NCBI GenBank assembly: GCA_020059585.1
Contig: JAGVBU010000012.1
Span: 11,079-75,078 of the forward strand
From: Minisyncoccota bacterium
GTDB taxonomy: Bacteria; Patescibacteriota; Minisyncoccia; UBA6257; GWB1-50-10
DNA length: 64,000 nt
Direction of reading: 5' to 3'
Under the pieces are notes generated by a model, which was not told the DNA's origin, did not search any database, and was given only the letters and a program-made list of their open reading frames with translations. A program made the position numbers and the translations under genes. Within the stretch, counting starts at the first letter, position 1. Each line of letters opens with the position of its first letter. Shown in pieces: positions 1,178-63,128 of the stretch.

Positions 1178-1198
1178 TGGAGCCAATGGTCGGATTTG
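1178..1198 (-). repeat. Duplicate of the tRNA-Thr(GGT) 3' end (CAAATCCGACCATTGGCTCCA on the minus strand, with CCA encoded); it terminates a ~165-nt GC-rich structured element at 1199-1361
   Basis: 21-nt identity with the 3' end of the tRNA at 1362-1434. A third shorter copy (CATTGGCTCA) lies at 1031-1040, preceded by a hairpin and T-run. Confidence 0.7.
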
Positions 1199-1361
1199 CC
1201 ATTCCGCCTCTCGTCGCGCCGTCGCGCTCCTCGGGTTCCAGGCCTGCCCTCGCGGTGCGCACTGCTGTGCGCACATCGCTCCGGGCTTCAAATCCTGTCG
1301 CGAGACAAATCATTGTCTCGCTTTCCATTATTTAAAATTCCGCTTTCGCGGAATTTTTTTG

Positions 1362-3120: not shown

Positions 3121-4341
3121 TTACGGAATAAAATTTTTGAAAAAATTTCTCATCGCGCCCCCGATTCCTGACATTGACGGTCCCCCTCCCGAATCTCCCA
3201 CAACGACGAGTCCAAGCGCCGTCGCAAACTCTGGATCATCAAGCAGCTCCTTGTGGGTTGGATTCATAATTTCAAAAGGACTCAATTCGGGAAATCCCAT
3301 CTGCGTATGGAATTTTAGTTCTTGCCGCACAAGATCCGTAATTCCCGGAAGCTTCGCCCCTCCTCCGGTGATAACTACCCCCGCGGGAAGCTGTATGCTC
3401 CGTCCAAGAACTTTGAGCTCATTATTTACAAGCTCGAGAATTTCCGCAAGTCGTACCTCTATTATTTCAGCCAAGAAACGTTTTGAGACCTCTCCCTTGT
3501 TCGCGGGATCGAATTCAGAAAGCGGGATCACGTCTTTTCTCCCCACCTCCTTTGATATCGCGTATCCATATGTAAGTTTTATTTTCTCCGCGGAATCGAA
3601 CGAAATTCTGAGCCCCATCGCAATATCGTTTGTCACGTGCCGCATACCTATCGGGATGCTTTTTGCGTAAGAAACCTTGTTCTCCTCATATACCACGAAT
3701 GAAGTGGTGTCGAATCCGAAATCGATCATTAACACTCCCAGATCCTTCTGTTTTTTTGAAAGCACCGCGCGGGCCGTCGCGAGAGGATTGAAAACTATAC
3801 CCCCTATCCGCACCCCCACGTGTCCCAATATCTTTAGAAGAAGATTTGTCTGCGGAGCAAACGATTCCACAATAAGCGTACTCACTTCAAGACGATTCCC
3901 TGTCATGCCAATCGGATCATGAATATCACCCACATCATCAACGAAAAACTCCCGCGTGATATTATGAATAACCATATAATTAGGCTGGAGCTTCACCGCT
4001 TGTGATGCCTGAATAACGCGATCAACATCATCTTGCTGTATTTCTCTATCCGCCCGCGCAACCGCGGCAATCCCCCGCGAATTCCTTACCCGGATATGTT
4101 CACTATTTACGTTCACAAAAACATTCTGCGTAACTTTTTTGGAAATATTCTGGAGATCAAGAACAAGCTCTCTTAATATTCTCGTCGCCTCCTCGGGATC
4201 AACGAGCACTCCCTTATGAAAACCCGACGAAGGATGTTTCACCACCGCAAGAACAGAAAGTTGTCCGTTTTTTCTTTTTTCGGCAACAACACATTTTATA
4301 TATAGGGATCCAATATCAAGACCGGTGATAATGCTCGGCAT
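3121..4341 (-). CDS. ftsA: Cell division protein FtsA (actin-like ATPase)
   Basis: N-terminus ITGLDIGSLYIKCVV, actin-fold ATPase, position immediately upstream of ftsZ. Confidence 0.9.
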   Translation of the reverse strand: MPSIITGLDIGSLYIKCVVAEKRKNGQLSVLAVVKHPSSGFHKGVLVDPEEATRILRELVLDLQNISKKVTQNVFVNVNSEHIRVRNSRGIAAVARADREIQQDDVDRVIQASQAVKLQPNYMVIHNITREFFVDDVGDIHDPIGMTGNRLEVSTLIVESFAPQTNLLLKILGHVGVRIGGIVFNPLATARAVLSKKQKDLGVLMIDFGFDTTSFVVYEENKVSYAKSIPIGMRHVTNDIAMGLRISFDSAEKIKLTYGYAISKEVGRKDVIPLSEFDPANKGEVSKRFLAEIIEVRLAEILELVNNELKVLGRSIQLPAGVVITGGGAKLPGITDLVRQELKFHTQMGFPELSPFEIMNPTHKELLDDPEFATALGLVVVGDSGGGPSMSGIGGAMRNFFKNFIP

Positions 4342-7803: not shown

Positions 7804-8349
7804 ATGAAAGAAAAGTTCAACTTTGAAAATAGTACACTCATCGCCGGACTTGGAAATCCGGGAAATGAGTACGAAAGGACATTTCATAATGCCGGAGCGC
7901 AATTCGTTTCTTTTGCGGTAATACAACACGGAGAGAACATCGGGTGGAAAAAACATTCCTCCGGACTCTTTACATACGCGAAACGCGAAGGACGTATATT
8001 TCTCGTTCCTCTTGTGTTTATGAATGAATCAGGGAGCGCTATCCTCCGCGCGTTATCATTCTTCAAGATCCCCGCAGAAAAAATGATAATTGCGCATGAT
8101 GATTCTGATATAGGAATAGAGTCCTACAAGATCGACTATGGACGGGGTGCGGCGGGACATCGCGGCGTTGCGAATGTGATGAACGTACTCGGCACAAAAT
8201 CGTTCTGGCGGATCCGCATAGGAATACGGGATATGCGGGAAGAAAAAAGGATGAAAGCGGAAACGTTTGTCCTCTCTAAGGAGACGCGGGAAGAAAAAGC
8301 CGCTCTTGAGCGGACATTTCTTTCGATCCTCGAGGAAACACACTTATAG
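7804..8349 (+). CDS. pth: Peptidyl-tRNA hydrolase
   Basis: IAGLGNPGNEYERTFHNAGAQFV N-terminal signature. Confidence 0.9.
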   Translation: MKEKFNFENSTLIAGLGNPGNEYERTFHNAGAQFVSFAVIQHGENIGWKKHSSGLFTYAKREGRIFLVPLVFMNESGSAILRALSFFKIPAEKMIIAHDDSDIGIESYKIDYGRGAAGHRGVANVMNVLGTKSFWRIRIGIRDMREEKRMKAETFVLSKETREEKAALERTFLSILEETHL

Positions 8350-16459: not shown

Positions 16460-16465
16460 ATCATG

Positions 16466-16621
16466 TGGACCTAGGCAGAATCTCACGTCGTCCCTCAACT
16501 TCGTTCGGGACTCTTTAGACACCTCTCGGTTTCTAACGTCCCGATTAGTATCGGGACTGTCTTCCTACACGGGAAAACTTCCGTTTTCCCGACCCCTTTC
16601 CCGTTCGATTCTGCCTAAAAC
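16466..16621 (-). ncRNA. ~155-nt structured element downstream of tRNA-Ala; it ends with a 17-nt copy of the tRNA-Ala 3' end (GATTCTGCCTAGGTCCA) followed by the terminator
   Basis: A 33-nt imperfect direct repeat (g[ga]agtttt[tt/c]at[ct]atgtggacctaggcagaatc) is present at 16450-16482 and 16650-16682. The element contains the perfect hairpins GTCCCGAT-ACTA-ATCGGGAC and GGGAAAAC-GGAA-GTTTTCCC. It has no ORF. Calling it ncRNA is speculative. Confidence 0.4.
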
Positions 16622-16665
16622 CAAAACGAAAACTTCCGCTATATTTAACGGAAGTTTTCATTATG

Positions 16666-16736
16666 TGGACCTAGGCAGAATCGAACTGCCGTCTCGGCAA
16701 TGCGAATGCCGCGTTCTACCACTGAACCATAGGCCC
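16666..16736 (-). tRNA. tRNA-Ala (anticodon CGC)
   Basis: Reverse complement is GGGCCTA-TG-GTTC-AGTGGTA-GAAC-G-CGGCA-TTCGCAT-TGCCG-AGAC-GGCAG-TTCGATT-CTGCC-TAGGTCC-A. G3:U70 identity pair present. Confidence 0.85.
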
Positions 16737-25687: not shown

Positions 25688-27826
25688 ATGTTGGAACTCT
25701 CCACTCCTCTCTCTTCTATCAGCGGTGTGGGACCGCGCTTTCTTCAGAAATTCAAAAAACTTAGCATCGAAACGGTGCGTGATCTTCTCTGGCACCTCCC
25801 CGCGCGTTATGAGGATTTTTCCGCAATCACGAACATCGCCGACCTTGCGCCGCGCGAAGAATGTACCGTGCGCGGGATTGTAAAAAAACTTGAGATGCGC
25901 CGCGCGTGGCGAAAACGAATGTTTATCCTTGAAGGTGTTGTCGAAGATGAGACGGGCGCGGTACGCGTCGTCTGGTTTAATCAGACATACATACGAAATG
26001 TGCTCGGCGAGGGCACGCCCGTGAATCTCTCCGGCAAGGTAAGCGTGTCAAAAGACGGCGAATTGTATTTTTCGAATCCAACCTACGAAGTGCCATCAAA
26101 ATACGGCAAAGAAACGAAACATACGGGGCGCGTGATTCCTATCTACCCTGAAACAAAAGGACTCACCTCGAAAGGTATCCGCTACATCATCCAGCCGATT
26201 CTCGAACGGATCGGAAATATCGAGGAGACGCTTCCAAACGAAATCGCAAAGCGGTTTGGATTCCCCCCGCTCTCCGAATCGATTCACACGGTACACTTCC
26301 CTGATTCAATCGAGGCGGGAATTGCGGCGCGGAAGCGGTTTGCCTTCGAAGATCTTTTCCTTCTCCAGCTCTTCCTTCTCAAGGAGAGAATGCGCGTCAA
26401 AAAAGAGCGCGCGCATGCGGTTCCTACAGATATTGATGGGATAAAAAAATTTCTCGGAACACTCCCCTTCGAGCTCACTCAGTCACAGAAAAAATCCCTC
26501 TGGGAAATCCTGAAAGACATGGAAGCGCCCGCGCCGATGAACCGCCTTCTTCAGGGAGACGTGGGATCTGGAAAAACAATCATTGCCGCGGCAGCGGCGC
26601 GTGAAGCGGCGCGCGCGGGATTTCAAACCGCGTTCATGGCGCCCACCGAAATTCTTGCCCACCAGCACTATGAGACGATGCGGAAAATATTCGCGCGTGA
26701 AAACATAGGCATCGCGCTTTTAACAGGAAGTGATGCGCGCGCGTCATACGGCGACGGACTTGAAACAACGATGAAAAAATCCGACCTTACGCGCGAAGTC
26801 GCGAAAGGCGCGCTCTCTGTCGTCATCGGCACGCACGCCCTCATCGCGGAATCAAAAACAAAAAAGTCGGTCCCCTTCGCGCTCCTCGGTCTTGTGGTGG
26901 TGGATGAACAGCATCGCTTCGGCGTGCGCCAGCGCGCGAAGATCATCGAACCAGATGAGCACGGCTATGCGCCGCACTTTCTCTCGATGTCCGCGACGCC
27001 CATTCCCCGCACTCTTTCTCTTACGCTCTGGGGCGATCTCGATATCTCGCTCATCAGCGAACTCCCAAAAAACAGGAAACCCATTATCACAAAAGTGGTG
27101 CCACCTGAAGATCGCATGAACGCATACGCATTCATACGGAGCGAAATAAAAAAAGGAAGGCAGGCGTTTGTAGTCTGCCCGCGCATTGAACCGGCGACAA
27201 ACAGCGAACACCTTACCACGAAAGAATACGAGATGCTCCAAATAAAGTCGGTAACGGAAGAATATGAGAAGCTTTCAAAAACAATCTTTCCCGATCTCGC
27301 GGTCGCGATGATCCACGGAAAACTCAAGGCGGCGGAAAAAGAAAAAACGATGCGCGAGTTCTCAGCAAACAAAACGAATATTCTTATTTCAACCGCGGTT
27401 ATCGAGGTGGGTGTCGATGTGCCGAACGCGACAATTATGATGATCGAGGGCGCGGACCGATTCGGTCTCGCCCAGCTCTACCAGTTCAAGGGACGCGTGG
27501 GCCGCGGAGAGCACCAGTCATACTGCATGCTCTTTTCAGATTCCTCATCGGATACCACAAGGAAACGTCTTCTCTCTATTGTTGAGGCGAAAAACGGATT
27601 CGAGCTTGCCGAACGCGACCTTGCGCTCCGCGGTCCCGGTCAGTTCGTGGGAAACGAACAGACAGGAATGCCGGACCTCGCAATGAACGCGCTTCGCCAT
27701 CCGGAAGCGACAAAAGATGCCCGCGACGCGGCGGCGGACATTCTTTCAAAGGACCCTTCTCTCAAGAAATATCCCGCGCTCAAAACCCGCCTCGCCGACC
27801 TCACTCGCAAGGTGCACGGGGAATAA
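25688..27826 (+). CDS. recG: ATP-dependent DNA helicase RecG
   Basis: N-terminal wedge/OB region; helicase motifs GDVGSGKT, DEQHRFGV, SATPIPRT, and QLYQFKGRVGRG. Confidence 0.9.
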   Translation: MLELSTPLSSISGVGPRFLQKFKKLSIETVRDLLWHLPARYEDFSAITNIADLAPREECTVRGIVKKLEMRRAWRKRMFILEGVVEDETGAVRVVWFNQTYIRNVLGEGTPVNLSGKVSVSKDGELYFSNPTYEVPSKYGKETKHTGRVIPIYPETKGLTSKGIRYIIQPILERIGNIEETLPNEIAKRFGFPPLSESIHTVHFPDSIEAGIAARKRFAFEDLFLLQLFLLKERMRVKKERAHAVPTDIDGIKKFLGTLPFELTQSQKKSLWEILKDMEAPAPMNRLLQGDVGSGKTIIAAAAAREAARAGFQTAFMAPTEILAHQHYETMRKIFARENIGIALLTGSDARASYGDGLETTMKKSDLTREVAKGALSVVIGTHALIAESKTKKSVPFALLGLVVVDEQHRFGVRQRAKIIEPDEHGYAPHFLSMSATPIPRTLSLTLWGDLDISLISELPKNRKPIITKVVPPEDRMNAYAFIRSEIKKGRQAFVVCPRIEPATNSEHLTTKEYEMLQIKSVTEEYEKLSKTIFPDLAVAMIHGKLKAAEKEKTMREFSANKTNILISTAVIEVGVDVPNATIMMIEGADRFGLAQLYQFKGRVGRGEHQSYCMLFSDSSSDTTRKRLLSIVEAKNGFELAERDLALRGPGQFVGNEQTGMPDLAMNALRHPEATKDARDAAADILSKDPSLKKYPALKTRLADLTRKVHGE

Positions 27827-27839
27827 TTAAGATTTTTTG

Positions 27840-27990
27840 TCGGGCTGCCGGGAATCGCCTACAAATCTCTCCTCGTCGCCACTCGTCGAGTCCGCAGGCC
27901 GCCGCTCGCCATGCATCGTACTCGATGCATATGGCTCCGCGCTTCGATTCTCGACAAAACGCACGCAGGTGCGTTTCTGCAACCCCTTAC
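27840..27990 (-). repeat. tRNA-Pro(TGG) 3'-end fragment (18 nt) fused to the ~130-nt conserved structured element (family A, copy 2)
   Basis: 27841-27857 repeats the tRNA 3' end at 28031-28047. 27858-27985 is ~93% identical to 19922-20045. A terminator hairpin ccccgtcagtc-cata-gactggcgggg follows at 27996-28021. Confidence 0.7.
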
Positions 27991-28029
27991 GAAAACCCCG
28001 TCAGTCCATAGACTGGCGGGGTTTCTTTG

Positions 28030-28100
28030 TCGGGCTGCCGGGAATCGAACCCGGTCTACCTGCTCCCAAAGCAGGCGTACTACCGGTATACTACAGCCCG
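28030..28100 (-). tRNA. tRNA-Pro (anticodon TGG)
   Basis: Reverse complement is CGGGCTG-TA-GTA-TACCGGTAG-TAC-G-CCTGC-TTTGGGA-GCAGG-TAGA-CCGGG-TTCGATT-CCCGG-CAGCCCG-A. Confidence 0.8.
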
Positions 28101-28188
28101 ATATATATCTTCAGTCTCTAGTGTATTGTGATTTTTCAGGAAAAGAAAGTATAAAAAACGGCCGAGGGGGCCGTTTCTAGATTTTTTA

Positions 28189-28920
28189 TTATGTATGCGC
28201 TTCAGCTTTCTTCTCAAGCGCCTCGAGAATGTTCATTGCAACCGTTTCTATCATCACATCCTCTTTGAGTGCCGTCGTGTCAAAAAGTCTAAGCTGGGTA
28301 TATTCAGGCGAAAGGTCTGTATACGCCTTCTTATATCTTCCTACCAGCTTCTCTATTGATTGCGGATTTGTCGTTTCTCCGAGTTTGTCCGTCAACGCAA
28401 CGCGCAGTTCCCGCTCCATCGCAACTTTCGGATCGCAGATCATAAAATATGCCGCATCGATATTCTGCATCCAGAATTTTGAAAGAAAGAATGTCTGGAT
28501 AATCCGTTCTTCCTCTTCGGAAAGCTTCCCCTTGTCCCTCCAGTACATCATCCATGCGTATGTATCAAACATACACCGATCGAAAATCACCACATCATAT
28601 AAATTTCCGTGACTCAAATCGATAAGCATCTGGAGCGCGTAGAGCCCCGTCCGAATATTATAGAGTGGAGTGGTACGTTCAATGTGCCGTATCACCTCGG
28701 CGCCTTCTTGGGGGCGGAGCACGCGAAAATCATAGCGTCTCAGAAACTTATCGAGCTCGGTAATCGTCGTCGTCTTTCCCGCGGAAGGAGAACCCGTGAT
28801 TTCAACAAAAAACGGACGCGGAAGATATCCGTTGTACCGCTTAGGAACCTTCAGATACGAGCGTATCTTCCTGATTTTTTCTTCAAACACTTCCTGATGC
28901 GGACGTCCTTTGCCGTCCAT
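28189..28920 (-). CDS. P-loop NTPase, deoxynucleoside-kinase-like
   Basis: Walker A ITGSPSAGKTTT; dNK-like DRC..D motif region. Confidence 0.45.
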   Translation of the reverse strand: MDGKGRPHQEVFEEKIRKIRSYLKVPKRYNGYLPRPFFVEITGSPSAGKTTTITELDKFLRRYDFRVLRPQEGAEVIRHIERTTPLYNIRTGLYALQMLIDLSHGNLYDVVIFDRCMFDTYAWMMYWRDKGKLSEEEERIIQTFFLSKFWMQNIDAAYFMICDPKVAMERELRVALTDKLGETTNPQSIEKLVGRYKKAYTDLSPEYTQLRLFDTTALKEDVMIETVAMNILEALEKKAEAHT

Positions 28921-45009: not shown

Positions 45010-48000
45010 TTAGTCCTTTTTTATTCCCACCCAGACGTCCCATTCATCGATCTTTGTCTGGATCTCCGCGTCTATCTTCGGAGAACGTATTATTGTTGAA
45101 GATTTCGCCCCTACGTCCTTCTTTAGTCGCGTCATATGTTTCTCCGCCACAAACTGTATTTCCTCCGAACCGTGTACATAAAGCGTGATCGTGTCCTTCA
45201 TGCGAAGTCCCGCGTCCTGTCTAAGATCTTGGATAATGCGCACAAGCTCGCGGAAAAGCCCTTCTTCGCGAAGCGCGTGGGTAACGACAGTATCAAGAAT
45301 GACCGTTTCGCCAAGATTCTCTTGGAAGATCACCTCTTTCACGTTTATTTCATCCTTTAATATCTCAAGATATTTGGAGTCGCGCGCGGAAAGATTTGTT
45401 TTTTCGGAAGAAATCGTGATGGAAGCAAGAGGCTGACGGACCTTAATCCCCGTCTCCGCCCGTTTTGCGAGCGCGGCACTTGCAATCACGCGAACCGACT
45501 CCATTTTTTCAAACATCTTTAGCGCCTTTTTTGCTCGCGCGGAATCTCCTCGGGGCCATTCCTCAAGGTGAACTGACGTCTTTTTCTGCGGCAATGAGAG
45601 ATAGAGCGCCTCCGCGAAAAAAGGAGTAAAGGGCGCAAGGAGTTTTGAAATCTCAAAAAGCACATGCCCCAAAACCCTTGAAGCGACCATGTGGTCTTTT
45701 TTATTTTCAGGACGCTGAAGCCTCTTTCTCGACCGGCGTATATACCAACGGGAAACATCTCCTACAAAGTTTTCAATGTCTCTCGCGGCGCCTCCCACGT
45801 CATACGCGTCCAACGCGCGAGTTGCACGCGCAGACGTCTCTGAAAGGCGATCTAATATCCACAAATCAAGAAGCGTGCATTCCGATTTCGTGATTCTTTT
45901 TGCGCACGCGCTCTTGTCCGCATACAAATCAAAAAAGAGAAAAGAGTTATAAAGAAGGGAAAAGAGCTGACGTGATACTTTTGAGATATCCGCTTCATCA
46001 AAACGCTTTGGCTCTCCCGGAGGATTCACGGTGTAGAAATACCATCGGGACGCGTCAACTCCGTATTTTGCAATCATATCCCATGGACTTACTACATTTC
46101 CCCTTGATTTCGACATCTTCTGTCCATTCTTGTCGAGTACGAGTCCAAGGGATATTACATTTTTATACGGAGCCTCTTTTCCGAGAATCGCGGAAACCGC
46201 GAGAAGTGTGTAAAACCATCCTCTCGTCTGATCCATCGCCTCTGAAATATAATCAGCGGGATATGGAAGATTTTTTTTGGTTCCCTTTTCGAAAGGATAA
46301 TGCACTTGCGCGAACGGCATTGCTCCCGAATCGAACCATACGTCGGCAACTTCCGGAATACGGGACATTATTCCCTTCGCGCATTTCTCACATGGGAATT
46401 GCACCGCGTCTATGTAGGGACGATGCATATCAAAGCCTCCGGTGGCGTCACGCGGACCGCTGCGTATCGTCTCCTTCTCAAATCCCGCGTTTTTGACGTA
46501 ATCAACGCCCCGTTTCTCCTTCTCTTCAAGCTGGTCCTCAGTTGACCATCCCTTCGCAATGGTATGGAGCATGTATACAAGTCCATCGTGCGTTACTATA
46601 AGTATTTTTTTGTGGGAATGTTTTTTTTCAACATCGGAAAGAAACTCATACACCCGCCTCCTTAGATCTGTGTGATTTTCCCCATTCGGCGTTCTCTTCG
46701 TAAATTTTTCGGCGCGGTTTCCGTAATACGCGGCATACGACGCGTAGGGCTTTCCATTGAAGTCGCCAAAATCAAATTCGCGCAAGCGCGGATCAAAATG
46801 CACTTCCTTTATCCCGAGCGCCTTCGCCACTATCTCGGCGGTCTGCTTTGTGCGGGCAATATCGGAGGCGAATATAATATCAATTTTTTCCTTTTTCAAA
46901 ATACGCGCGCTTTTTTCAACTTGAGTCACTCCTTTCAGCGTAAGCGGGAGTTTTTCCGGTTCCGGCCAGCAATTAATAAGATGTTTTGTATTATTCTCGG
47001 CTTCCCCATGCCTCATGAATACATAAGAATTCGTACTCTTCCCAATCGCGTCACCAAATTCCTCCGCGGATTTCACGACGCGTATCGCGCTACAGGAATT
47101 ACACTCCCACACTGGAAGCGGGGTTCCCCAAAAACGTTCACGGGATATTGCCCAGTCCTTCACCTCGCGAATCCATTCCCCAAATCGTCCATCCTTCAAG
47201 TGGTCCGGAATCCAGCGTATTTTTTTGTTTTCTGAAATAAGTTTTCCGCGAAGCGAACTCATCTTTATAAACCATGAATTCCTCGCGTAATAGAGCAGCG
47301 GAGAACTACAACGCCAACAAAAAGGATATTCGTGCTTATATTTTTTCTCGCTGAAAAGATTTCCGGACTTTTCGAGCGCGTCAATGACATATGCCTCCGT
47401 TTTAGGATTCTTTGCCGGCATTCCCCCAAAATGAGGAATTTCTTGAAGAAAATTCCCCGCCTCATCAACAGTGTGGATTGCGGGAAGCCCAATTGCCACC
47501 CCAAGATTATAATCGTCCTCCCCGTACATCACCGCGGTATGCACAACTCCCGTGCCGTCCTCCGTGGTTACAAAATCCGCAGCATATACTTTGTAAGCCT
47601 TCTCATCCGTATCATTGTCTTTTATCGCCCGTATATCGAAAAGGGGCTCATATTCGATACCAAGAAGATCTTTTCCGTTAAGAGTAATCAGCGTCTTGTA
47701 TTCGGTGTGAAGCACGGAGTCAATCAGGTTTTCCGCCAAAATGTAGCGTTCTCCGGTATTCTTAATATTTACTACCTGATATTTGATATCCTTCCCCACC
47801 GCAAGAGCGACATTTCCGGGAAGCGTCCACGGCGTTGTCGTCCACGAAAGGATATAGGTATGCTCATCCGCGACAAAATCAGTTCCAATCTTCTGCCCTT
47901 TCTTCACTTTAAATTTTATATATACGGAACGGTCTTCCACCTCCTTATACCCTTGCGCAAGCTCGTGTGAAGAGAGCGCGGTTCCGCATCGCGGACACCA

Positions 48001-48558
48001 CGGCACCACCTTGTGTCCCCTATAGAGAAGTTTTTTCTTCCATGCTTCATGAAAAATCCACCAGAGTGTTTCAATGTACGAATTTTTGTATGTGATATAA
48101 GGATTCGCGAGATCGAGCCAGAAACCCATACGGACCGTAAGTTTTTCCCACTCGTCTTTGTATGTCCACACCGATTCCCTGCATTGCTCGTTGAACGGAG
48201 CGATGCCGAATTTTTCAATGTCCTTTTTTGTGGAAAAACCAAGCTTCTTCTCCACCTCAAGCTCAACGGGAAGCCCGTGCGTATCCCACCCCCCCTTTCT
48301 CGGAACATAAAAGCCGCGCATCGTTTTATATCGGAGAACAATATCTTTGAAAGAGCGGGCAAGTACATGATGGATACCCGGACGGCCGTTTGCGGTAGGA
48401 GGACCCTCAAAAAACACAAACTCTTTTTTCGTCCGGTTTTTTAAGAGTGAGCGGGTGAAAATATCGCTCTCCCGCCAGAATTCAAGCACTTTTTCCTCAA
48501 CTTCGGGAAGCGAAAATTTTTGGGTGTTTTTGAGCATATATATTTCTTTATGTCCCAT
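45010..48558 (-). CDS. ileS: Isoleucyl-tRNA synthetase with an inserted histidine-phosphatase (PGAM-like) domain
   Basis: HIGH-like PPTANGRPGIHH, CP1 editing domain, WCPRCGT zinc motif, KMSKS. A ~190-aa insertion (aa ~508-705) carries RHGEAENN and ILIVTHDGLV, the two catalytic-histidine motifs of the histidine phosphatase superfamily. Confidence 0.9.
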   Translation of the reverse strand: MGHKEIYMLKNTQKFSLPEVEEKVLEFWRESDIFTRSLLKNRTKKEFVFFEGPPTANGRPGIHHVLARSFKDIVLRYKTMRGFYVPRKGGWDTHGLPVELEVEKKLGFSTKKDIEKFGIAPFNEQCRESVWTYKDEWEKLTVRMGFWLDLANPYITYKNSYIETLWWIFHEAWKKKLLYRGHKVVPWCPRCGTALSSHELAQGYKEVEDRSVYIKFKVKKGQKIGTDFVADEHTYILSWTTTPWTLPGNVALAVGKDIKYQVVNIKNTGERYILAENLIDSVLHTEYKTLITLNGKDLLGIEYEPLFDIRAIKDNDTDEKAYKVYAADFVTTEDGTGVVHTAVMYGEDDYNLGVAIGLPAIHTVDEAGNFLQEIPHFGGMPAKNPKTEAYVIDALEKSGNLFSEKKYKHEYPFCWRCSSPLLYYARNSWFIKMSSLRGKLISENKKIRWIPDHLKDGRFGEWIREVKDWAISRERFWGTPLPVWECNSCSAIRVVKSAEEFGDAIGKSTNSYVFMRHGEAENNTKHLINCWPEPEKLPLTLKGVTQVEKSARILKKEKIDIIFASDIARTKQTAEIVAKALGIKEVHFDPRLREFDFGDFNGKPYASYAAYYGNRAEKFTKRTPNGENHTDLRRRVYEFLSDVEKKHSHKKILIVTHDGLVYMLHTIAKGWSTEDQLEEKEKRGVDYVKNAGFEKETIRSGPRDATGGFDMHRPYIDAVQFPCEKCAKGIMSRIPEVADVWFDSGAMPFAQVHYPFEKGTKKNLPYPADYISEAMDQTRGWFYTLLAVSAILGKEAPYKNVISLGLVLDKNGQKMSKSRGNVVSPWDMIAKYGVDASRWYFYTVNPPGEPKRFDEADISKVSRQLFSLLYNSFLFFDLYADKSACAKRITKSECTLLDLWILDRLSETSARATRALDAYDVGGAARDIENFVGDVSRWYIRRSRKRLQRPENKKDHMVASRVLGHVLFEISKLLAPFTPFFAEALYLSLPQKKTSVHLEEWPRGDSARAKKALKMFEKMESVRVIASAALAKRAETGIKVRQPLASITISSEKTNLSARDSKYLEILKDEINVKEVIFQENLGETVILDTVVTHALREEGLFRELVRIIQDLRQDAGLRMKDTITLYVHGSEEIQFVAEKHMTRLKKDVGAKSSTIIRSPKIDAEIQTKIDEWDVWVGIKKD

Positions 48559-54102: not shown

Positions 54103-54423
54103 GGGGATGACGGGCCTCGACAATGTGGCCTCTCCGCAGACTGCGTGCCGAGCTCGAATATCTCGTAAAACTGTCCGAACAAACAATAACTGCCAACAAA
54201 ACAGCAGTTCCGGCGTTCGCCTTCGCGGCATAACGCTCATCGGGCCCAAGGTCTCATAGGGATCACCCGGTGTTATATCTGAGACTCGTTCCGTAAAAAC
54301 CGCTTTGCATATACGGAATCAAAGACGCGAAGCACCATTGTTTCGGACGTTAGTCCAAAAACTACGCATGTAGAGTGTCTGTGAAGAACTCATTGGACGC
54401 CGGTTCAACTCCGGCCATCTCCA
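54103..54423 (+). ncRNA. ssrA: tmRNA (ssrA), ~321 nt
   Basis: 5' end GGGGATGACGGGCCTCGAC (consensus GGGGnnGAnnGGnnTCGAC). 3' tRNA-like end GGACGCCGGTTCAACTCCGGC-CATCTCC-A with a G3:U70 pair. Candidate tag ORF GCC AAC AAA ACA GCA GTT CCG GCG TTC GCC TTC GCG GCA TAA (ANKTAVPAFAFAA*) at 54192-54233. Adjacent to smpB. Confidence 0.85.
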
Positions 54424-55948
54424 CATCTTGTACATTGGGATCAATAACCTGTTTAAAAACCCTTAAAGGAAGGGATAATTCTGCGGTTCCAAAACCATTT
54501 TGAGGATCGTAGGCGAGTTTTGATTCAAATATAATCTTGAATATCAATCGTTTTTCGGATAAATCCTCTTTTTCCCATTGTGTATGTGGGTTCTTTAGTA
54601 TTTCAAAAACTTTTTCGAGGGCGGTTTCAAAGCTTATAGATAATTTTTGTTGAGTGCCATTAATTCGTTCTTCGAGTACTTTTCTTTCCTCGGAAAGCCT
54701 TTCTATCTGCTGTTCATATTCCTGAATTAGCGTTTCTTTTTTTGATTTAGAAACCCGATCCATAAAACCGTCCACCTCTCCTAGTATTTCTTTGAGGCGA
54801 TTCTTGTCCTTTTCTTCACGCTTTTTAACTTCTCCCACTTTTTCATTCCAGATATCGAGTGTTATGGCTTTTGTTAGTTCAAGCACACCCGGCTTAGGTT
54901 TTATATGCCTTAAAATCGCCCCAAAACTGCCCTCTATAACGCTTTTAGGCACCCCTTTATTCCTCATAAGACAACTTACAGAAGCACACCTATAATAGCC
55001 GAATTTTGCATTTCTACCTCTACTCCAACTTGCAGTGTATGGTTTCCTGCAGTGTTCACAAAGAACGAATCCACGAAGGGGAAAGTCGGGGTTAGCGTCT
55101 TTCCTTGTTTGAGTCCGGACTTTGCCCAAGAGTTTTTTCTGAATTTTTTCAAAAGTTTCTAAACTTATAAGCGGTTTATGGTGTCCCTTTCTCCGTGATA
55201 CCTCCCAAGGAAGATATTCAACGTAGCCAGCGTAGATTGAACGCATCAGAAGACGTTTCACATCTTCTACATACGGTTTTTTCCCTTTGCGCTTTCCATA
55301 ATAGTTTTTTGAAACAAGGAATCGCAACACGTCCATCTGCTCGTATAGCTCTCCTGAGGCGTATTTTTCCAATGCTTCGCGTATAGTGGTCGCTTCTGGT
55401 TCCGTAGAAACCAATAGTTTGCCGTGTATCGGGTCCTTTTTTTGTACATACCCGGGAGGAGGATAAAACGGCCAATATCCTTTTTCTAAGCGAGCTTTTT
55501 GCTTTTGAATAACCTGACGCTTATTCTGCTCTCGTTCTAATTGCCCCTGGGCAGCAAAAATCGTTTCTACAAATGCGCCCTCGGGACTATCATCAAAATT
55601 ATAATTGAGACACTCGGGCTTTAATTCACGCGCACGAAACTCACGTCGTAGATTCCAATGGAAAATGGTGTCTCGAGCAAATCGTTTTAGATCGTCAAAA
55701 ATTACAACGTATTTTTTGTGTCTATTTTTATCTGCATAATCGAGTAAGGACCGCATTGCTGGCCGATTCATAAAATCTCCGCCCCCACTAAAGCTGTCTC
55801 GAAATACCCGTTCTATCTCGTATCCTTTCGTCCGTGCATATTCACGACAACGATGTTCCTGACTATCTAGCCCGTGTCCATCGTTCTTCTGTCTTTCGGA
55901 AGAAACACGGCAGTATATAAGTGCGAATGTTTTCTGCATATACATCAT
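54362..55948 (-). mobile_element. Large serine recombinase (integrase) whose C-terminal coding region overlaps the last 62 nt of tmRNA
   Basis: N-terminal catalytic domain YCRVSSERQ (catalytic Ser), recombinase domain, Cys-rich zinc ribbon (CEHCRKPYT...YYRCASVSC) and coiled-coil; 528 aa. Confidence 0.85.
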
Positions 55949-56082
55949 TCTAAATCTTTAAAGTAATTATCCAATACTTTCCTCGCTATTGCATAAATAG
56001 CGCCTCGAAGCTCTTCGAGTTCTTTGTCGGATAAATTATTTAGATCGGGGGCGATCTTTTTACACTCATCGAAGGTTAACAT
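55945..56082 (-). CDS. 45-aa ORF translationally coupled (ATGA overlap) to the serine recombinase; possible recombination directionality/regulatory factor
   Basis: MLTFDECKKIAPDLNNLSDKELEELRGAIYAIARKVLDNYFKDLE; its stop overlaps the recombinase start. Below the ORF-track threshold and found by hand. Confidence 0.3.
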   Translation of the reverse strand: MLTFDECKKIAPDLNNLSDKELEELRGAIYAIARKVLDNYFKDLE

Positions 56083-56471
56083 AGTGGCAAGAACAACAAA
56101 TAAAAAACGCCATTTTGGCGCTATTCCGATCTCTTAAGCGCCGAAGTAAACGGGCGATTAAGAGGAATAATTAGATTTGTTGTTTGTGCCGAAACGCTGG
56201 TTTCCGCACTAAGTTAACTCCCCCTGATTGATATTAAATTTTTAACTTTTTTAGTATAACACTTTCGTGCTAATATACAAACACAACTGAATAGCCATTA
56301 GGCAAACCTAACCCGTCGAGAAATCGGCGGTATGGTCCAAAAAACGGTTCAACGTACTAAGCTCCTAGTCAGAGCACGTTGAACCGTCATACGGGGAAAC
56401 CTGTATGGGTCCGCAAGGATCGCTGGCTGGGAGCTTTGTGTTTTCCCGCCAGCAACGAAAAACAAAATAAA

Positions 56472-56621
56472 ATGCCAAACTGGTTGCAAATAGTCGTTTT
56501 CATAATAGTCGGCTTCTCGCTGTTTTGGGGCGGAATTTATATTTTCTCCTGTATCAAAAGTGGTGAAAAATTAACTTGGAAAGGTCTCTTCGGTGCGATA
56601 ATCGGATCTATGTTCAAATGA
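56472..56621 (+). CDS. Small (49-aa) single/double-TM protein
   Basis: MPNWLQIVVFIIVGFSLFWGGIYIFSCIKSGEK... Confidence 0.3.
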   Translation: MPNWLQIVVFIIVGFSLFWGGIYIFSCIKSGEKLTWKGLFGAIIGSMFK

Positions 56622-56791
56622 AACAAAATGAGTATAAACTAATCGCTTTCTGGCTGTTCATTCTTCACTGGAGTTTTGTTATTGCTATAGCGATAAAATC
56701 AGAATACTTTTCCGGTTGGATTAAGTGGATTGTGTCTATATCACTTCTCGCCGCGGTTGTCTTTTATGTGTCGAGTGGTGAGAAAAAGTGA
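56576..56791 (+). CDS. Small (71-aa) 2-TM protein, overlapping the previous ORF
   Basis: Two hydrophobic helices; follows the preceding small ORF. Confidence 0.3.
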   Translation: MERSLRCDNRIYVQMKQNEYKLIAFWLFILHWSFVIAIAIKSEYFSGWIKWIVSISLLAAVVFYVSSGEKK

Positions 56792-57000
56792 ATATACCCC
56801 TTTGAAAAACTGATTTATTTTTCAAAAAATCAAACTGAAAAAACACGGCATTTGCTGTGTTTTTTCTTAAAATCTAGGTTTTTTAACCTAAAAACCTGTC
56901 GAAGTGTTTTACAACAGTAAAATTACTTATTTTTGGTCAAAAATGGCGCGGCGCATAATAAAAGGAGTTTACACGGCGCCGTCAAAAGGTGTAGAAAAAA

Positions 57001-58581
57001 CTACACTTTCGTTTTTTGTAGCTCGCTCAAGCAACCTACCGGTATAACTCCGTTTCTTGTGCTATCTTCCTTATCTCCGGTTCTAATAATACCGACAACG
57101 GATCCGGTTTTATTCAAGAGTGGTCCACCACTCATTCCGCCTGATATATTTTTTCCTATCATAATAAGATTCACGCCATTTCTTACGCGCCGCCCAACAC
57201 ATTTATCGAAAAATGTATATGGATCCATACCGGCGCCGTATTCAGGAAACCCCACCGCGATTAGGTCGGCTCCAACACTTGGTTCAATGATGTCTTTCTT
57301 AAGCGGGTATTCTTTCTGCCCACTTCCTGTGATTTTTAAAACTACTAAATCAATTGCTTTGGGTGCTTCTGCAATTTTTTCTAAAGAGAAGCGCGTGGTG
57401 ATCGAATCAGACCTAAAAGCCTTAAGTGCTGTACAAAAAACGTGCCCACAGGTGACGATTCCATACCCCTCTAAATCAAAACCTGTTCCTTGGTGATATC
57501 CACCCCCACAAGATTCGTCACACTCCAAGATCCATAAAGCTTTATAAGCCTTTTCTACATCTCCTAAAACATATCTAGGAGGCATACCAATAGCGCTACA
57601 GAATGAATTTTCCAATTTTTGATATATTCTATTTTCTTCTCCTCTTATAAATCTGATAAAGCTAATTTTCCCTTTTATGGTTTTGATTATGTTTTTCTCC
57701 GTCTTTTCATTTTCTTGAAATATTTTTTGAGCCCCGTCGGACCCATATTTTCTAACAAGAAAAATTAATGTTCTTATGTTTCTAATAAAATCGCGACCAA
57801 CATTCGTAAATTCATTCACAGTCAATCCGGTAACACGCTGTCTTTGTTTTTTTGTTTTTAATCTTGTCTTTTTTTCGTTAACAACAAACGAATTCTCTTT
57901 TATGAGATTTTCAAGAGTGCTACCAATGCAACCGTCTCCGTCAACAATACTTTGTCCAAACCTTTTTTCTGTTGTCGAAAATGTAATATCATCGGCGTAC
58001 CTTGTATAAAAACATCGGTTCTTAATAGCTAATCCTTGAATCTCGCTATCCAATCTCGAACAAACTATATTAGATAATATTGGAGACGTTGGCGCTCCTT
58101 GTGGCAGACTGCCATCAACACAACAAATATTTGCGACGCATTCGGCGACATTAGGGGGTAAATTATAAGGATTCGCCATCAGCACGCCTCTTACTCTTTT
58201 ATCAGATATAGATTGAAAAAAATCGCTCAGATCCAGGTTAAAAACAAGTTCTTTTCTTTTGTGTTTATCGGAATTCGTAAGTATAGTTTTATCCCTACAA
58301 AAACCGTGAGCTGGAGCCTTCTGTTTATATATTAAATATAAGCACTTAGAAAGTCTTCGTTGTATATTTTTTAAATACGGAATCGGTGCTCTTATGTCTC
58401 TGAGTCCACCCGACTTTTTTCTTATCTGGAATGTTTTATAAAACATTCCCTGTTTTCGATTCATTAAGGCTTTGAGCAGCTCTCTCCTAATACCTAAATA
58501 ATCAGCAACGTCGTCCGTTGTTTTTAGGCTCAAAAAGTCATTTTTTCTTTTTTTTTCTAATTCGTTTCTTGGCGTTCCCAT
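57001..58581 (-). CDS. Retron-type reverse transcriptase fused to a C-terminal trypsin-like (S1) serine-protease domain
   Basis: RT motifs: KKSGGLRDIRAP (motifs 1/2), FNLDLSDFFQSI (A), LPQGAPTSPILSNI (B'), YTRYADDITF (C, YADD), QRVTGLTVN (retron-specific VTG). C-terminal ~190 aa has the His/Asp/Ser triad context GIVTCGHV...DLVVLKI...GMSGGPLL (compare GDSGGP). Confidence 0.8.
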   Translation of the reverse strand: MGTPRNELEKKRKNDFLSLKTTDDVADYLGIRRELLKALMNRKQGMFYKTFQIRKKSGGLRDIRAPIPYLKNIQRRLSKCLYLIYKQKAPAHGFCRDKTILTNSDKHKRKELVFNLDLSDFFQSISDKRVRGVLMANPYNLPPNVAECVANICCVDGSLPQGAPTSPILSNIVCSRLDSEIQGLAIKNRCFYTRYADDITFSTTEKRFGQSIVDGDGCIGSTLENLIKENSFVVNEKKTRLKTKKQRQRVTGLTVNEFTNVGRDFIRNIRTLIFLVRKYGSDGAQKIFQENEKTEKNIIKTIKGKISFIRFIRGEENRIYQKLENSFCSAIGMPPRYVLGDVEKAYKALWILECDESCGGGYHQGTGFDLEGYGIVTCGHVFCTALKAFRSDSITTRFSLEKIAEAPKAIDLVVLKITGSGQKEYPLKKDIIEPSVGADLIAVGFPEYGAGMDPYTFFDKCVGRRVRNGVNLIMIGKNISGGMSGGPLLNKTGSVVGIIRTGDKEDSTRNGVIPVGCLSELQKTKV

Positions 58582-63089: not shown

Positions 63090-63125
63090 CAACAAAAACC
63101 CCCGTCAGTCCATGGACTGACGGGG
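63090..63125 (+). terminator. Rho-independent terminator (cccccgtcagtcc-atg-gactgacggggg-ttttg)
   Basis: 13-bp GC-rich stem plus T-run after rplT. Confidence 0.6.
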
Positions 63126-63128
63126 GTT

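Follow-up and report, generated by a model that had tools for sequence, protein, structure and literature searches.

A structured element between recG and tRNA-Pro(TGG)

The 64,000-nt stretch of DNA analyzed here (the window; Minisyncoccota bacterium, GenBank assembly GCA_020059585.1, contig JAGVBU010000012.1, positions 11,079 to 75,078) contains, between recG and a tRNA-Pro(TGG) gene, a short noncoding element that ends in a copy of the 3' end of that tRNA and also carries a segment antisense to it (Table 1). A preliminary description of the locus, made from the sequence alone, had placed the second copy of a conserved element directly after recG. That position proved to be correct: the tRNA fragment begins 13 nt past the stop codon of an open reading frame (ORF; 25688 to 27826, 712 amino acids) whose homolog on contig L189 contains the domains RecG_wedge, DEAD, Helicase_C, and RecG_dom3_C. 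The near identity to a sister element behind tRNA-Pro(CGG) was recovered as well, with 94% identity between positions 27840 to 27985 and 19904 to 20045; a repeat search of the window returned a 144-nt direct repeat, also with 94% identity (19899 to 20042 and 27835 to 27978), and a MAFFT alignment agreed.

Table 1. Coordinates of the elements, their parts, and the associated tRNA genes in the window
Feature	Position	Strand	Basis or remark
Distal copy of tRNA-Pro(TGG) positions 56 to 73 (element 3' arm; 3' strands of P1 and P0)	27840-27857	-	Exact 18-nt match
Conserved core	27858-27942	-	R1 covariance model; covariation on alignment A3
P2, loop of the GCGAC-GGC type, tandem G.A or Watson-Crick pairs	~27858-27899	-	
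P3, invariant GGA/GA internal loop, tip hairpin ATGCATCG-TACT-CGATGCAT	~27900-27942	-	
Anti-T segment, P1 5' strand (sense reading CGAGAAUCG-AA)	27943-27953	-	
Hairpin P4, AAACGCAC-CUGC-GUGCGUUU, dividing the antisense arm	27957-27976	-	
P0 5' strand GGGUUGC, pairing with acceptor 3' strand GCAGCCC of the distal copy	27979-27986	-	
Spacer between tRNA and element, terminator-like hairpin at ~27994-28022	27987-28028	-	
tRNA-Pro(TGG), host gene	28029/28030-28100	-	ARAGORN, Rfam
Sister element, 94% identical, Pro(CGG)/(GGG)-type 3' fragment at 19904-19921	19901-20051	-	R1, 118 bits
tRNA-Pro(CGG)	20167-20238	-	ARAGORN, Rfam
Pseudo-tRNA-Pro(GGG), anticodon arm to 3' end, 5' third deleted	20086-20150	-	Between tRNA-Pro(CGG) and sister element
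Element behind tRNA-Thr(GGT) (tRNA at 1361-1434)	1178-1331	-	R1, 121 bits
Divergent element behind tRNA-Ala(CGC) (tRNA at 16665-16736)	16463-16625	-	R1, 16.7 bits, E = 0.003; same architecture by eye
Element behind tRNA-Lys(CTT) (tRNA at 24071-24144)	23907-24061	-	R1, 114 bits; missing in conspecific contig L144

On the plus strand, tcgggctgccgggaatcg (27840 to 27857) is the exact reverse complement of the final 18 nt of tRNA-Pro(TGG), and tcggggtgcagggaattg (19904 to 19921) is that of the final 18 nt of the adjacent tRNA-Pro(CGG); hence, as had been claimed, each copy ends in the 3' end of its own neighbor. Both fragments span the region from T-loop position 56 to discriminator position 73. 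While this sense fragment had been seen in the preliminary description, the internal antisense arm had been overlooked, and it is there that the differences noted earlier as compensatory-looking are found: changes in the internal TTCRATTC and in the 7 to 8 nt after hairpin P4 re-match each element to its own tRNA fragment, with P1 going from AATTG/CAATT to AATCG/CGATT and P0 going from UUGGGGUG:CACCCCGA to GGGUUGC:GCAGCCC. In other words, the Pro(TGG) and Pro(CGG) elements differ exactly where P1 and P0 must fit their own tRNA. As part of the explanation that we favor, we regard the two, with middling confidence, as a recent copy pair whose arms were re-matched to the new tRNA. Next to the sister element, a 16-nt trailer, CAAAATAACATTACCG, found near the pseudo-tRNA is repeated (20151 to 20166 and 19888 to 19903); in contig L076, an intact tRNA-Pro(CGG) is followed by tRNA-Pro(GGG) and then by an element.

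Conservation of structure and strand

Read along the tRNA strand, the element consists of the 5' strand of P0, hairpin P4, the 5' strand of P1, P3, P2, and the copy of tRNA positions 56 to 73 or 74. The P0 5' strand, i.e., the 8 to 10 nt before P4, is antisense to the acceptor 3' strand, N73, and C74 and pairs with these positions in the copy, while the P1 5' strand (consensus ...GGAWUYG-AA) is antisense to the 3' strand of the T-stem and to the T-loop, with its internal GGRAWYCG segment paired with copied tRNA positions 56 to 63. In the predicted fold, pairing between the two tRNA-specific arms closes a conserved three-way junction. The anti-T segment of the Pro(TGG) element is complementary to T-loop/T-stem positions 54/56 to 64 of its tRNA, and the covariance model of the element (R1) matched positions 27837 to 27987 with 114 bits (E = 6e-34). 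Both hairpins named in the preliminary description are present and correspond to conserved helices of the family, namely, the tip of P3 and P4. The tandem G.A pairs in the GCGAC-GGC loop of P2 are Watson-Crick pairs in other members, and the GGA/GA internal loop of P3 is invariant.

Covariation was assessed on an alignment of 34 members in tRNA-sense orientation (A3), on which the structure was drawn. On this structure, 85.6% of the cells were paired, versus 62.3% after shuffling; changes on both sides were seen in 38 of the 46 pairs, including all 7 pairs of P4; and the covariation score was 0.592 versus 0.186, a value reached in none of 500 shuffles, and fell to about 0.1 with slid partner columns. 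The stems are therefore kept by compensatory change, and since any two elements share only about 53% core identity, irrespective of tRNA or genome, this covariation does not stem from very recent common ancestry. On a family-wide scale, the P0 duplex was more stable with the cognate than with a noncognate partner (-8.4 versus -5.3 kcal/mol; p = 3e-7). As for the strand, on which the preliminary description was silent, cells read on the tRNA strand contained 55 G.U versus 20 A.C combinations and 135 G.A or A.G versus 16 C.U or U.C combinations, and the folding energy was 6 to 16 kcal/mol lower on the tRNA strand for all five copies in the window. Together, these statistics and energies indicate that the structured molecule has the polarity of the tRNA, i.e., minus in the window. 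In summary, the elements share a deep, covarying, strand-specific structure.

The same strand statistics and folding energies led us to reject a plus-strand small RNA, antisense to the tRNA and with a 5' guide. A small ribozyme or T-loop group I intron was rejected as well, given that there was no Rfam match, that the junction strands (AA, GUG, and none) are unfit for a hammerhead, and that no conserved terminal G precedes the distal copy. Finally, P4 was considered as a relic of the D or anticodon arm of the cognate tRNA; while the Pro(CGG) element was suggestive, no signal was found over 51 elements (p = 0.52).

The structure also bears on the idea that the elements are nonfunctional debris, that is, what is left after the decay of duplicated tRNA genes or of elements integrated long ago. 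Pseudo-tRNA pieces and element remnants do occur in the same intergenic regions (the pseudo-tRNA-Pro, 24180 to 24240, and 1016 to 1057), and elements are dispensable in conspecific strains. However, compensatory substitutions keep five helices across distant classes of the candidate phyla radiation (CPR), loop nucleotides are invariant, the distance from tRNA fragment to core motif is constant at about 94 nt, and the elements persist in streamlined genomes. In practice, this refutes the debris explanation, to which we assign next to no weight.

A family behind tRNA and tmRNA genes of Patescibacteria

Whereas two copies had been described, the window contains at least five, located behind 5 of its 10 tRNAs (Thr, Ala, Pro(CGG), Lys, and Pro(TGG)), with the Thr, Lys, and Ala elements diverged in sequence and the four strong copies scoring 114 to 121 bits with R1. 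A search pattern made from two motifs common to the elements matched 5 times in the window, where 0 matches were expected, and at more than 119 loci in GTDB species-representative genomes. About 50 of these loci belong to Patescibacteria assemblies (Paceibacterota, Saccharibacteria, and Kaiser-, Jorgensen-, Taylor-, Portnoy-, Yanofsky-, Gribaldo-, and Nomurabacteria) and lie 25 to 90 nt from an antisense tRNA of almost any identity. Matches in GC-rich non-CPR genomes had no tRNA nearby and are thus attributed to chance, as are four matches in viral contigs, which lie inside coding sequence, also without tRNAs, so that a viral origin was dismissed. An exact copy of 14 to 21 nt of the tRNA 3' end was present, at the constant distance from the motif given above, in 35 of 54 cases; in this comparison, the distal copy carries CCA where the tRNA gene encodes CCA.

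Running R1 on the fetched loci yielded 80 plus 23 matches, most of them 0 to 60 nt downstream of a tRNA on the same strand. The census showed no specificity for proline, as the family was found behind tRNAs of at least 17 amino acid identities and, in two cases, after tmRNA genes (L058 and L091). A few matches had no recognizable upstream tRNA; of these, at least the element of L031, a paralog of that of L012, follows a decayed tRNA. Tandem elements were matched in L038, L040, L041, L044, L091, and L103, and arrays were also found in L029 and L047. Pairs from the same genome were no more alike than pairs from different genomes, and the comparison of core identities gave no sign of recent copy bursts besides the Pro pair. 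Lineages specific to a tRNA identity, hinted at by a GGAGCGGG variant in three Lys(CTT) elements, had no statistical support. No element was matched in Rfam 15 at an E value of ≤1, neither in positions 19500 to 28500 of the window nor over eight other loci, with only tRNAs and tmRNA scoring; similarly, ARAGORN and RF00005 call the flanking tRNAs only, with no cloverleaf within the element. We hold, with intermediate confidence, that the elements constitute a structured noncoding family of about 150 nt, specific to Patescibacteria (CPR) and located directly downstream of tRNA or tmRNA genes on the same strand. Their linkage to tRNA and tmRNA 3' ends is strict, and their sense and antisense arms are specific to the tRNA.

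Strain variation at tRNA ends

Contigs with an identical neighboring protein, about 97% identical to the window, were compared with it. In contig L189 (GCA_020724625.1), the recG stop codon is followed by TTAAGATTTTTTG and then by an uninterrupted tRNA-Pro(TGG), making this an exact empty site. The 190 bp absent from this strain, which hold no ORF, comprise the element, the spacer, and one 18-nt repeat; the exact repeats bounding this unit in the window (27840 to 27857 and 28030 to 28047) are joined in L189, where the tRNA is followed by the same trailer that follows the distal copy in the window. Likewise, in L144 (96 to 100% identical), tRNA-Lys has no element and is followed by the trailer and terminator that come after the distal copy in the window; this tRNA-Lys module is inverted. 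A third strain, L193, has a filled site next to tRNA-Pro(TGG), but a mosaic one: its distal fragment, TCGGGGTGCAGGGAATTG, is of the Pro(CGG) type, as are the ~115 nt on the left, which match the Pro(CGG) element, while its antisense arm, P4, P0, and spacer match the Pro(TGG) element. Either the two Pro copies recombine or L193 keeps an intermediate of transfer from the Pro(CGG)/(GGG) locus.

In L190, unrelated DNA beginning with CCA directly follows the same tRNA-Pro(TGG), and contigs L191, L192, and L194 break at the tRNA. In sister species L083, the orthologous tRNA-Pro(TGG) and its element are found between the same flanking genes, inverted as a block. More distant relatives with the same recG/tRNA-Pro synteny are empty (L124, L125, and L129) or have another subtype; in L127, 56 nt of trailer plus terminator are repeated after the fragment. 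Exact-protein lookups with the genes flanking the Ala and Pro(CGG) elements gave no further contigs.

This population of 97% identity thus displays precise presence and absence, tandem duplication, and mosaicism of the elements. Of the integration-like behavior proposed earlier, one part was borne out, since the variable unit is bounded by the repeated tRNA 3' end (with L189 and L144 empty). No linked integrase was found. A Pfam scan of about 60 window ORFs revealed no tyrosine integrase, no enzyme specific for proline tRNA, and no integron integrase; the products were housekeeping proteins, including a CCA-adding enzyme, RNase Y, and RNase J, and the sole recombinase, a large serine recombinase, is located at tmRNA, 26 kb from the Pro(TGG) element. 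When ORFs within 3 kb of about 90 elements were clustered, no recurrent protein family emerged, only scattered housekeeping families. Templated duplication of the tRNA 3' end, the other origin that had been suggested for the fragment, is possible.

The main rival to our own reading, given below, draws on the same observations. It holds that the element is a miniature, nonautonomous integrative DNA element, the folded tRNA-sense single strand of which is the substrate of a recombinase encoded elsewhere; strands would be exchanged in the T-loop, between positions 55 and 56, and circles consisting of positions 56 to 73, spacer, and core would enter and leave tRNA genes. Such a process would fit the left boundary of the repeat, which is fixed in the T-loop while the right one varies, as well as the exact presence and absence, the tandem arrays, the T-loop-broken tRNA pieces in the same regions (24180 to 24240 and the pseudo-tRNA-Pro), the inversion of whole modules of tRNA and element between relatives, and the L193 allele, which could have arisen by crossing over at the outermost 3' end of the shared sequence; moreover, G.T and tandem G.A mismatches are stable in DNA, too. 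On the other hand, no integrase or transposase recurs near the ~90 elements or stands beside the window copies, the internal-loop sequence of the core is strongly conserved, as is typical for RNA tertiary motifs but not for attC-like sites, the integron core GTTRRRY is not matched by the T-loop sequence GTTCGAA, and near-identical bursts within genomes are missing apart from the Pro pair. All in all, we consider this DNA-level integrative minicassette rather unlikely, and the guide-like, retroelement-like, and debris explanations less likely still.

Some further observations concern the same tRNA ends. A different conserved sequence that starts with CCA follows tRNA-Pro(TGG) in L190 (3890 to 4046) and in the more distant relative L125 (5232 to 5383), which suggests that another element uses the end of this tRNA as an insertion site. 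A 98.8%-identical strain, L188, has a 93-nt insertion upstream of tRNA-Pro(CGG) (3485 to 3580) that has the first 11 nt of the tRNA at its start and, at its end, the trailer of this tRNA in inverted copy, fused at the acceptor stem, being an inversion junction within the acceptor-stem palindrome. Regarding the serine recombinase in the window, its gene (54362 to 55945, minus strand) overlaps the 3' end of the tmRNA gene (54103 to 54424), and beyond it lies a gene encoding a reverse transcriptase fused to a trypsin-like protease (57001 to 58578). The region from 54103 to 58578 looks like an island integrated at tmRNA, with a defense-type reverse transcriptase.

The antisense arm and the distal copy

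Across many tRNA identities, the antisense arm forms 8.5 to 8.8 of 10 possible pairs with positions 56 to 65 of the adjacent tRNA. In the 39 elements in which distal copy and tRNA differ, the arm fits the tRNA better (8.8 of 10) than its own copy (7.3 of 10), and it is intact even where the copy has decayed. In addition, the invariant GAAC of the arm can pair with G53-T54-T55-C56. It thus seems that what is selected is the fit to the tRNA sequence as such, and the partner of the arm may be the distal copy, the mature tRNA, the tRNA within the same transcript, or the gene. Most distal copies end in N73-C-A-A rather than CCA, although copies ending in CCA stand beside a CCA-less tRNA gene in the Thr element of the window, L116, L041, L014, and the second element of L044. 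The complementarity of the arm includes CCA in L116 (UGGUGCG:CGCACCA) and L038, even with a CCA-less tRNA gene. The repeat measures 14 to 75 nt, and in six loci it takes in 14 nt or more of duplicated genomic trailer, which points to duplication at the DNA level.

Two explanations depend mainly on this arm. According to the first, it would act in a guide-RNA-like manner, directing a nuclease, recombinase, or modification or repair enzyme to the 3' end of one tRNA or tRNA gene, with the distal copy being either the target that remains after insertion or an intramolecular anti-guide. A tRNA-specific complementary segment of 18 to 22 nt on a conserved scaffold of ~110 nt, the better fit of the arm to the tRNA than to the copy, and the coverage of CCA in L116 and L038 would be expected of such an RNA. 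However, neither the clustering of neighbors nor the Pfam scan of the window detected an IS110, TnpB, IscB, or Cas gene beside the elements, no Rfam match was obtained (including HEARO and IS605-orfB), the supposed guide is divided by P4 and base-paired in the predicted fold, and about half of the tRNAs in one genome have an element. We therefore regard a guide function as quite unlikely.

The second explanation is a retroelement-like origin, in which the arm would be a primer-binding site for mature tRNA, or the tRNA-like 3' end would anneal to a nicked tRNA gene, with copies produced via an RNA intermediate by a reverse transcriptase acting in trans. In its 18-nt length and its position, the complementarity is indeed reminiscent of a retroviral primer-binding site; CCA ends occur in some distal copies beside CCA-less genes; and the window encodes a reverse transcriptase. 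Against this, the N73-C-A-A ends predominate, the duplicated trailers point to a DNA-level event, and the reverse transcriptase belongs to the tmRNA-linked island, is fused to a protease (defense type), and is not a recurrent neighbor. The idea is further weakened by the location of the primer-binding-like arm at the 5' end, from where priming would not copy the core, and such an origin strikes us as very unlikely.

Comparison with known systems

Genomic islands, prophages, and other integrative elements reportedly insert at the 3' ends of tRNA and tmRNA genes, with attL and attR that start in the T-loop or anticodon loop and run up to the 3' end. Our elements resemble them in a directly repeated tRNA 3' end that begins in the T-loop, in leaving the tRNA intact, in the use of tmRNA, and in a precise loss that restores a plain tRNA with its native trailer. 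Unlike these islands, however, they have a cargo of only ~130 to 190 nt, without integrase or ORF, which consists of a covarying structure holding an antisense copy of the att sequence, and they occupy about half of the tRNAs of a genome. Miniature inverted-repeat transposable elements (MITEs) and REPINs, which are nonautonomous and mobilized in trans, are similarly short, noncoding, structured, intergenic, and polymorphic between strains. In contrast to those, our elements lack terminal inverted repeats and a short target duplication of fixed length, ending instead in a tRNA copy and an unrelated spacer; each is fitted to one tRNA, and copies within a genome are as diverged as those from different phyla (~53%).

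The attP hairpin of CTX phage, which XerCD uses, and the attC sites of integrons are also imperfect inverted repeats of ~100 to 150 nt, with a structure that is conserved on one strand beyond the sequence of the stems and, as for our elements, with cassette-like tandem arrays beside a fixed site. Our elements differ in having no intI, attI, or dif context and in having invariant G.A loops in a three-way junction and arms that copy a tRNA. The core sites of attC read RYYYAAC ... GTTRRRY, whereas those of the elements read ..TTCGAAC and GTTCGAA.

Among RNAs, the IS110 bridge RNA, the omega RNAs of TnpB and IscB, and the homing CRISPR RNA of type V-K CRISPR-associated transposons share with the elements a scaffold plus a segment that is complementary to, and covaries with, its target, here the 3' end of a tRNA gene; the elements depart from these guide RNAs by the lack of a nearby cognate protein gene and of an Rfam match and by an arm that a hairpin interrupts and that pairs with a sense copy. 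The 3'ETS-leuZ trailer small RNA, mascRNA/MALAT1, YrlA, and the tRNA-like domain of tmRNA are stable RNAs that derive from tRNA transcripts or have tRNA-like ends. With these, the elements have in common the location in a tRNA 3' trailer on the same strand and ends forming an acceptor/T-stem-like stack that could recruit tRNA-processing enzymes. Unlike in those RNAs, base pairing includes the discriminator and C74 (or CCA), a T-loop is absent, and the 3' strand is an exact copy of the neighboring tRNA and not a generic mimic, in a phylum-wide family with a dedicated core.

Since every known kind considered fails at least one testable defining feature, we judge, with moderate confidence, that the family is new. 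No description of it was found in the literature searched in full text (on CPR, tRNA, structured RNA, and mobile elements), and with moderate confidence, we regard it as apparently undescribed, its combination of features being absent from Rfam 15 and from that literature. The new combination, again with moderate confidence, is that of a noncoding, strain-variable, superphylum-wide element, present at about half of the tRNAs of a genome, with a conserved three-way-junction core and both a copy and an antisense copy of a tRNA 3' end.

A proposed tRNA-linked structured RNA cassette

The reading that we prefer, and to which we attach about as much belief as doubt, is that of a structured RNA cassette linked to tRNA genes, with recombination in the repeated tRNA 3' end causing its loss, duplication, and reshuffling. 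The element would be transcribed with its tRNA or by readthrough. The resulting RNA would be compact, with its 5' and 3' ends locked in a P0/P1 duplex that mimics the acceptor/T-stem stack of a tRNA, and this clamp may provide it with protected, tRNA-like ends, while the G.A-rich invariant loops of the core would be the putative functional or protein-binding part. Because the copied tRNA 3' end forms a direct repeat of 18 to 75 nt with the real one, recombination can delete the cassette precisely. It would account for the empty sites in 97%-identical strains and for the tandem duplications, both of which are observed, and probably also allows reacquisition or copying to a related tRNA, with the mosaic L193 allele being a candidate intermediate or recombinant in copying between the Pro loci.

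Several points weigh against this reading. The G.U/G.A strand bias would be compatible with a folded single strand of DNA, too. Terminator-like hairpins occur between tRNA and element in 20 of 48 spacers, so that cotranscription may be inefficient. As the arm tracks the tRNA despite decay of the copy, its real partner may be the tRNA or the tRNA gene and not the copy. Furthermore, no gain event was caught, and the empty sites could all be deletions, while core identities of ~53% throughout allow no conclusion on vertical descent or transfer.

More speculatively, and only as a tentative possibility, the element might be a self-addressed, protein-less mobile RNA gene, the core of which, as RNA or as a folded DNA strand, recognizes by means of its antisense arm the 3' end of one tRNA or tRNA gene, installs the element there, and rebuilds that end; or it might be a partner RNA dedicated to the 3' end of its own tRNA, which it would capture, repair, sequester, or regulate. 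In either case, the elements would make up a new class of tRNA-specific noncoding element, located at about half of the tRNA genes across a bacterial superphylum. If the cassette reading is true, a large new family of RNAs or mobile elements would be added to a lineage noted for its minimal genomes. CPR/Patescibacteria would then have a hidden layer linked to their tRNA genes that is structured, deeply conserved, tailored to each tRNA, and variable between strains, and the repeated assembly breaks, inversions, and truncated tRNAs at tRNA genes in these metagenome-assembled genomes would be accounted for. It would also provide a concrete object for the study of tRNA 3'-end processing, protection, or use as a recombination address. 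In combining a tRNA 3'-end copy with its antisense, the element is unlike any known integrative element, MITE, guide RNA, or tRNA-like RNA.

Other features of the window and of related contigs

A terminator follows the distal fragment in four of the five window copies, and the Lys spacer has no terminator, both of which speak for an RNA made from the transcription unit of the tRNA. A family of palindromic terminators (CCCCGYCAGTCC..GGACTGRCGGGG) recurs at 19856 to 19888, 23872 to 23904, 27992 to 28024, and 63096 to 63128, as well as in relatives L068 and L083, and possibly represents a separate repeat element. Downstream of the Thr element (1016 to 1057), half a terminator and the last 9 nt of tRNA-Thr are fused to a P4-like hairpin end, probably what remains of a second, tandem unit that collapsed. 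The region between the two tRNA-Thr genes (1426 to 1602) contains 77-nt tandem units starting with the first 9 nt of tRNA-Thr(GGT), GCCAATGTA; these units also hold the complement of GCCAATGTA, giving hairpins in the tRNA leader. Just upstream of tRNA-Lys (24180 to 24240, minus strand) lies the 5' part of a tRNA (D-arm GCTCAGTTGGTAGA...), cut in the T-loop (...GAGCGGGTTCC/TTAAAAATC); the equivalent region of conspecific L144 has a wholly different sequence, with the tRNA inverted.

In L016, a Patescibacteria contig with an element, type III hammerhead matches were found at 3596 to 3650 and 7917 to 7971, with scores (37 and 42 bits) below the gathering threshold of 48.5. Lastly, positions 45010 to 48555 of the window encode an isoleucyl-tRNA-synthetase-like protein of 1181 amino acids with a His_Phos_1 domain inserted at residues 512 to 673.

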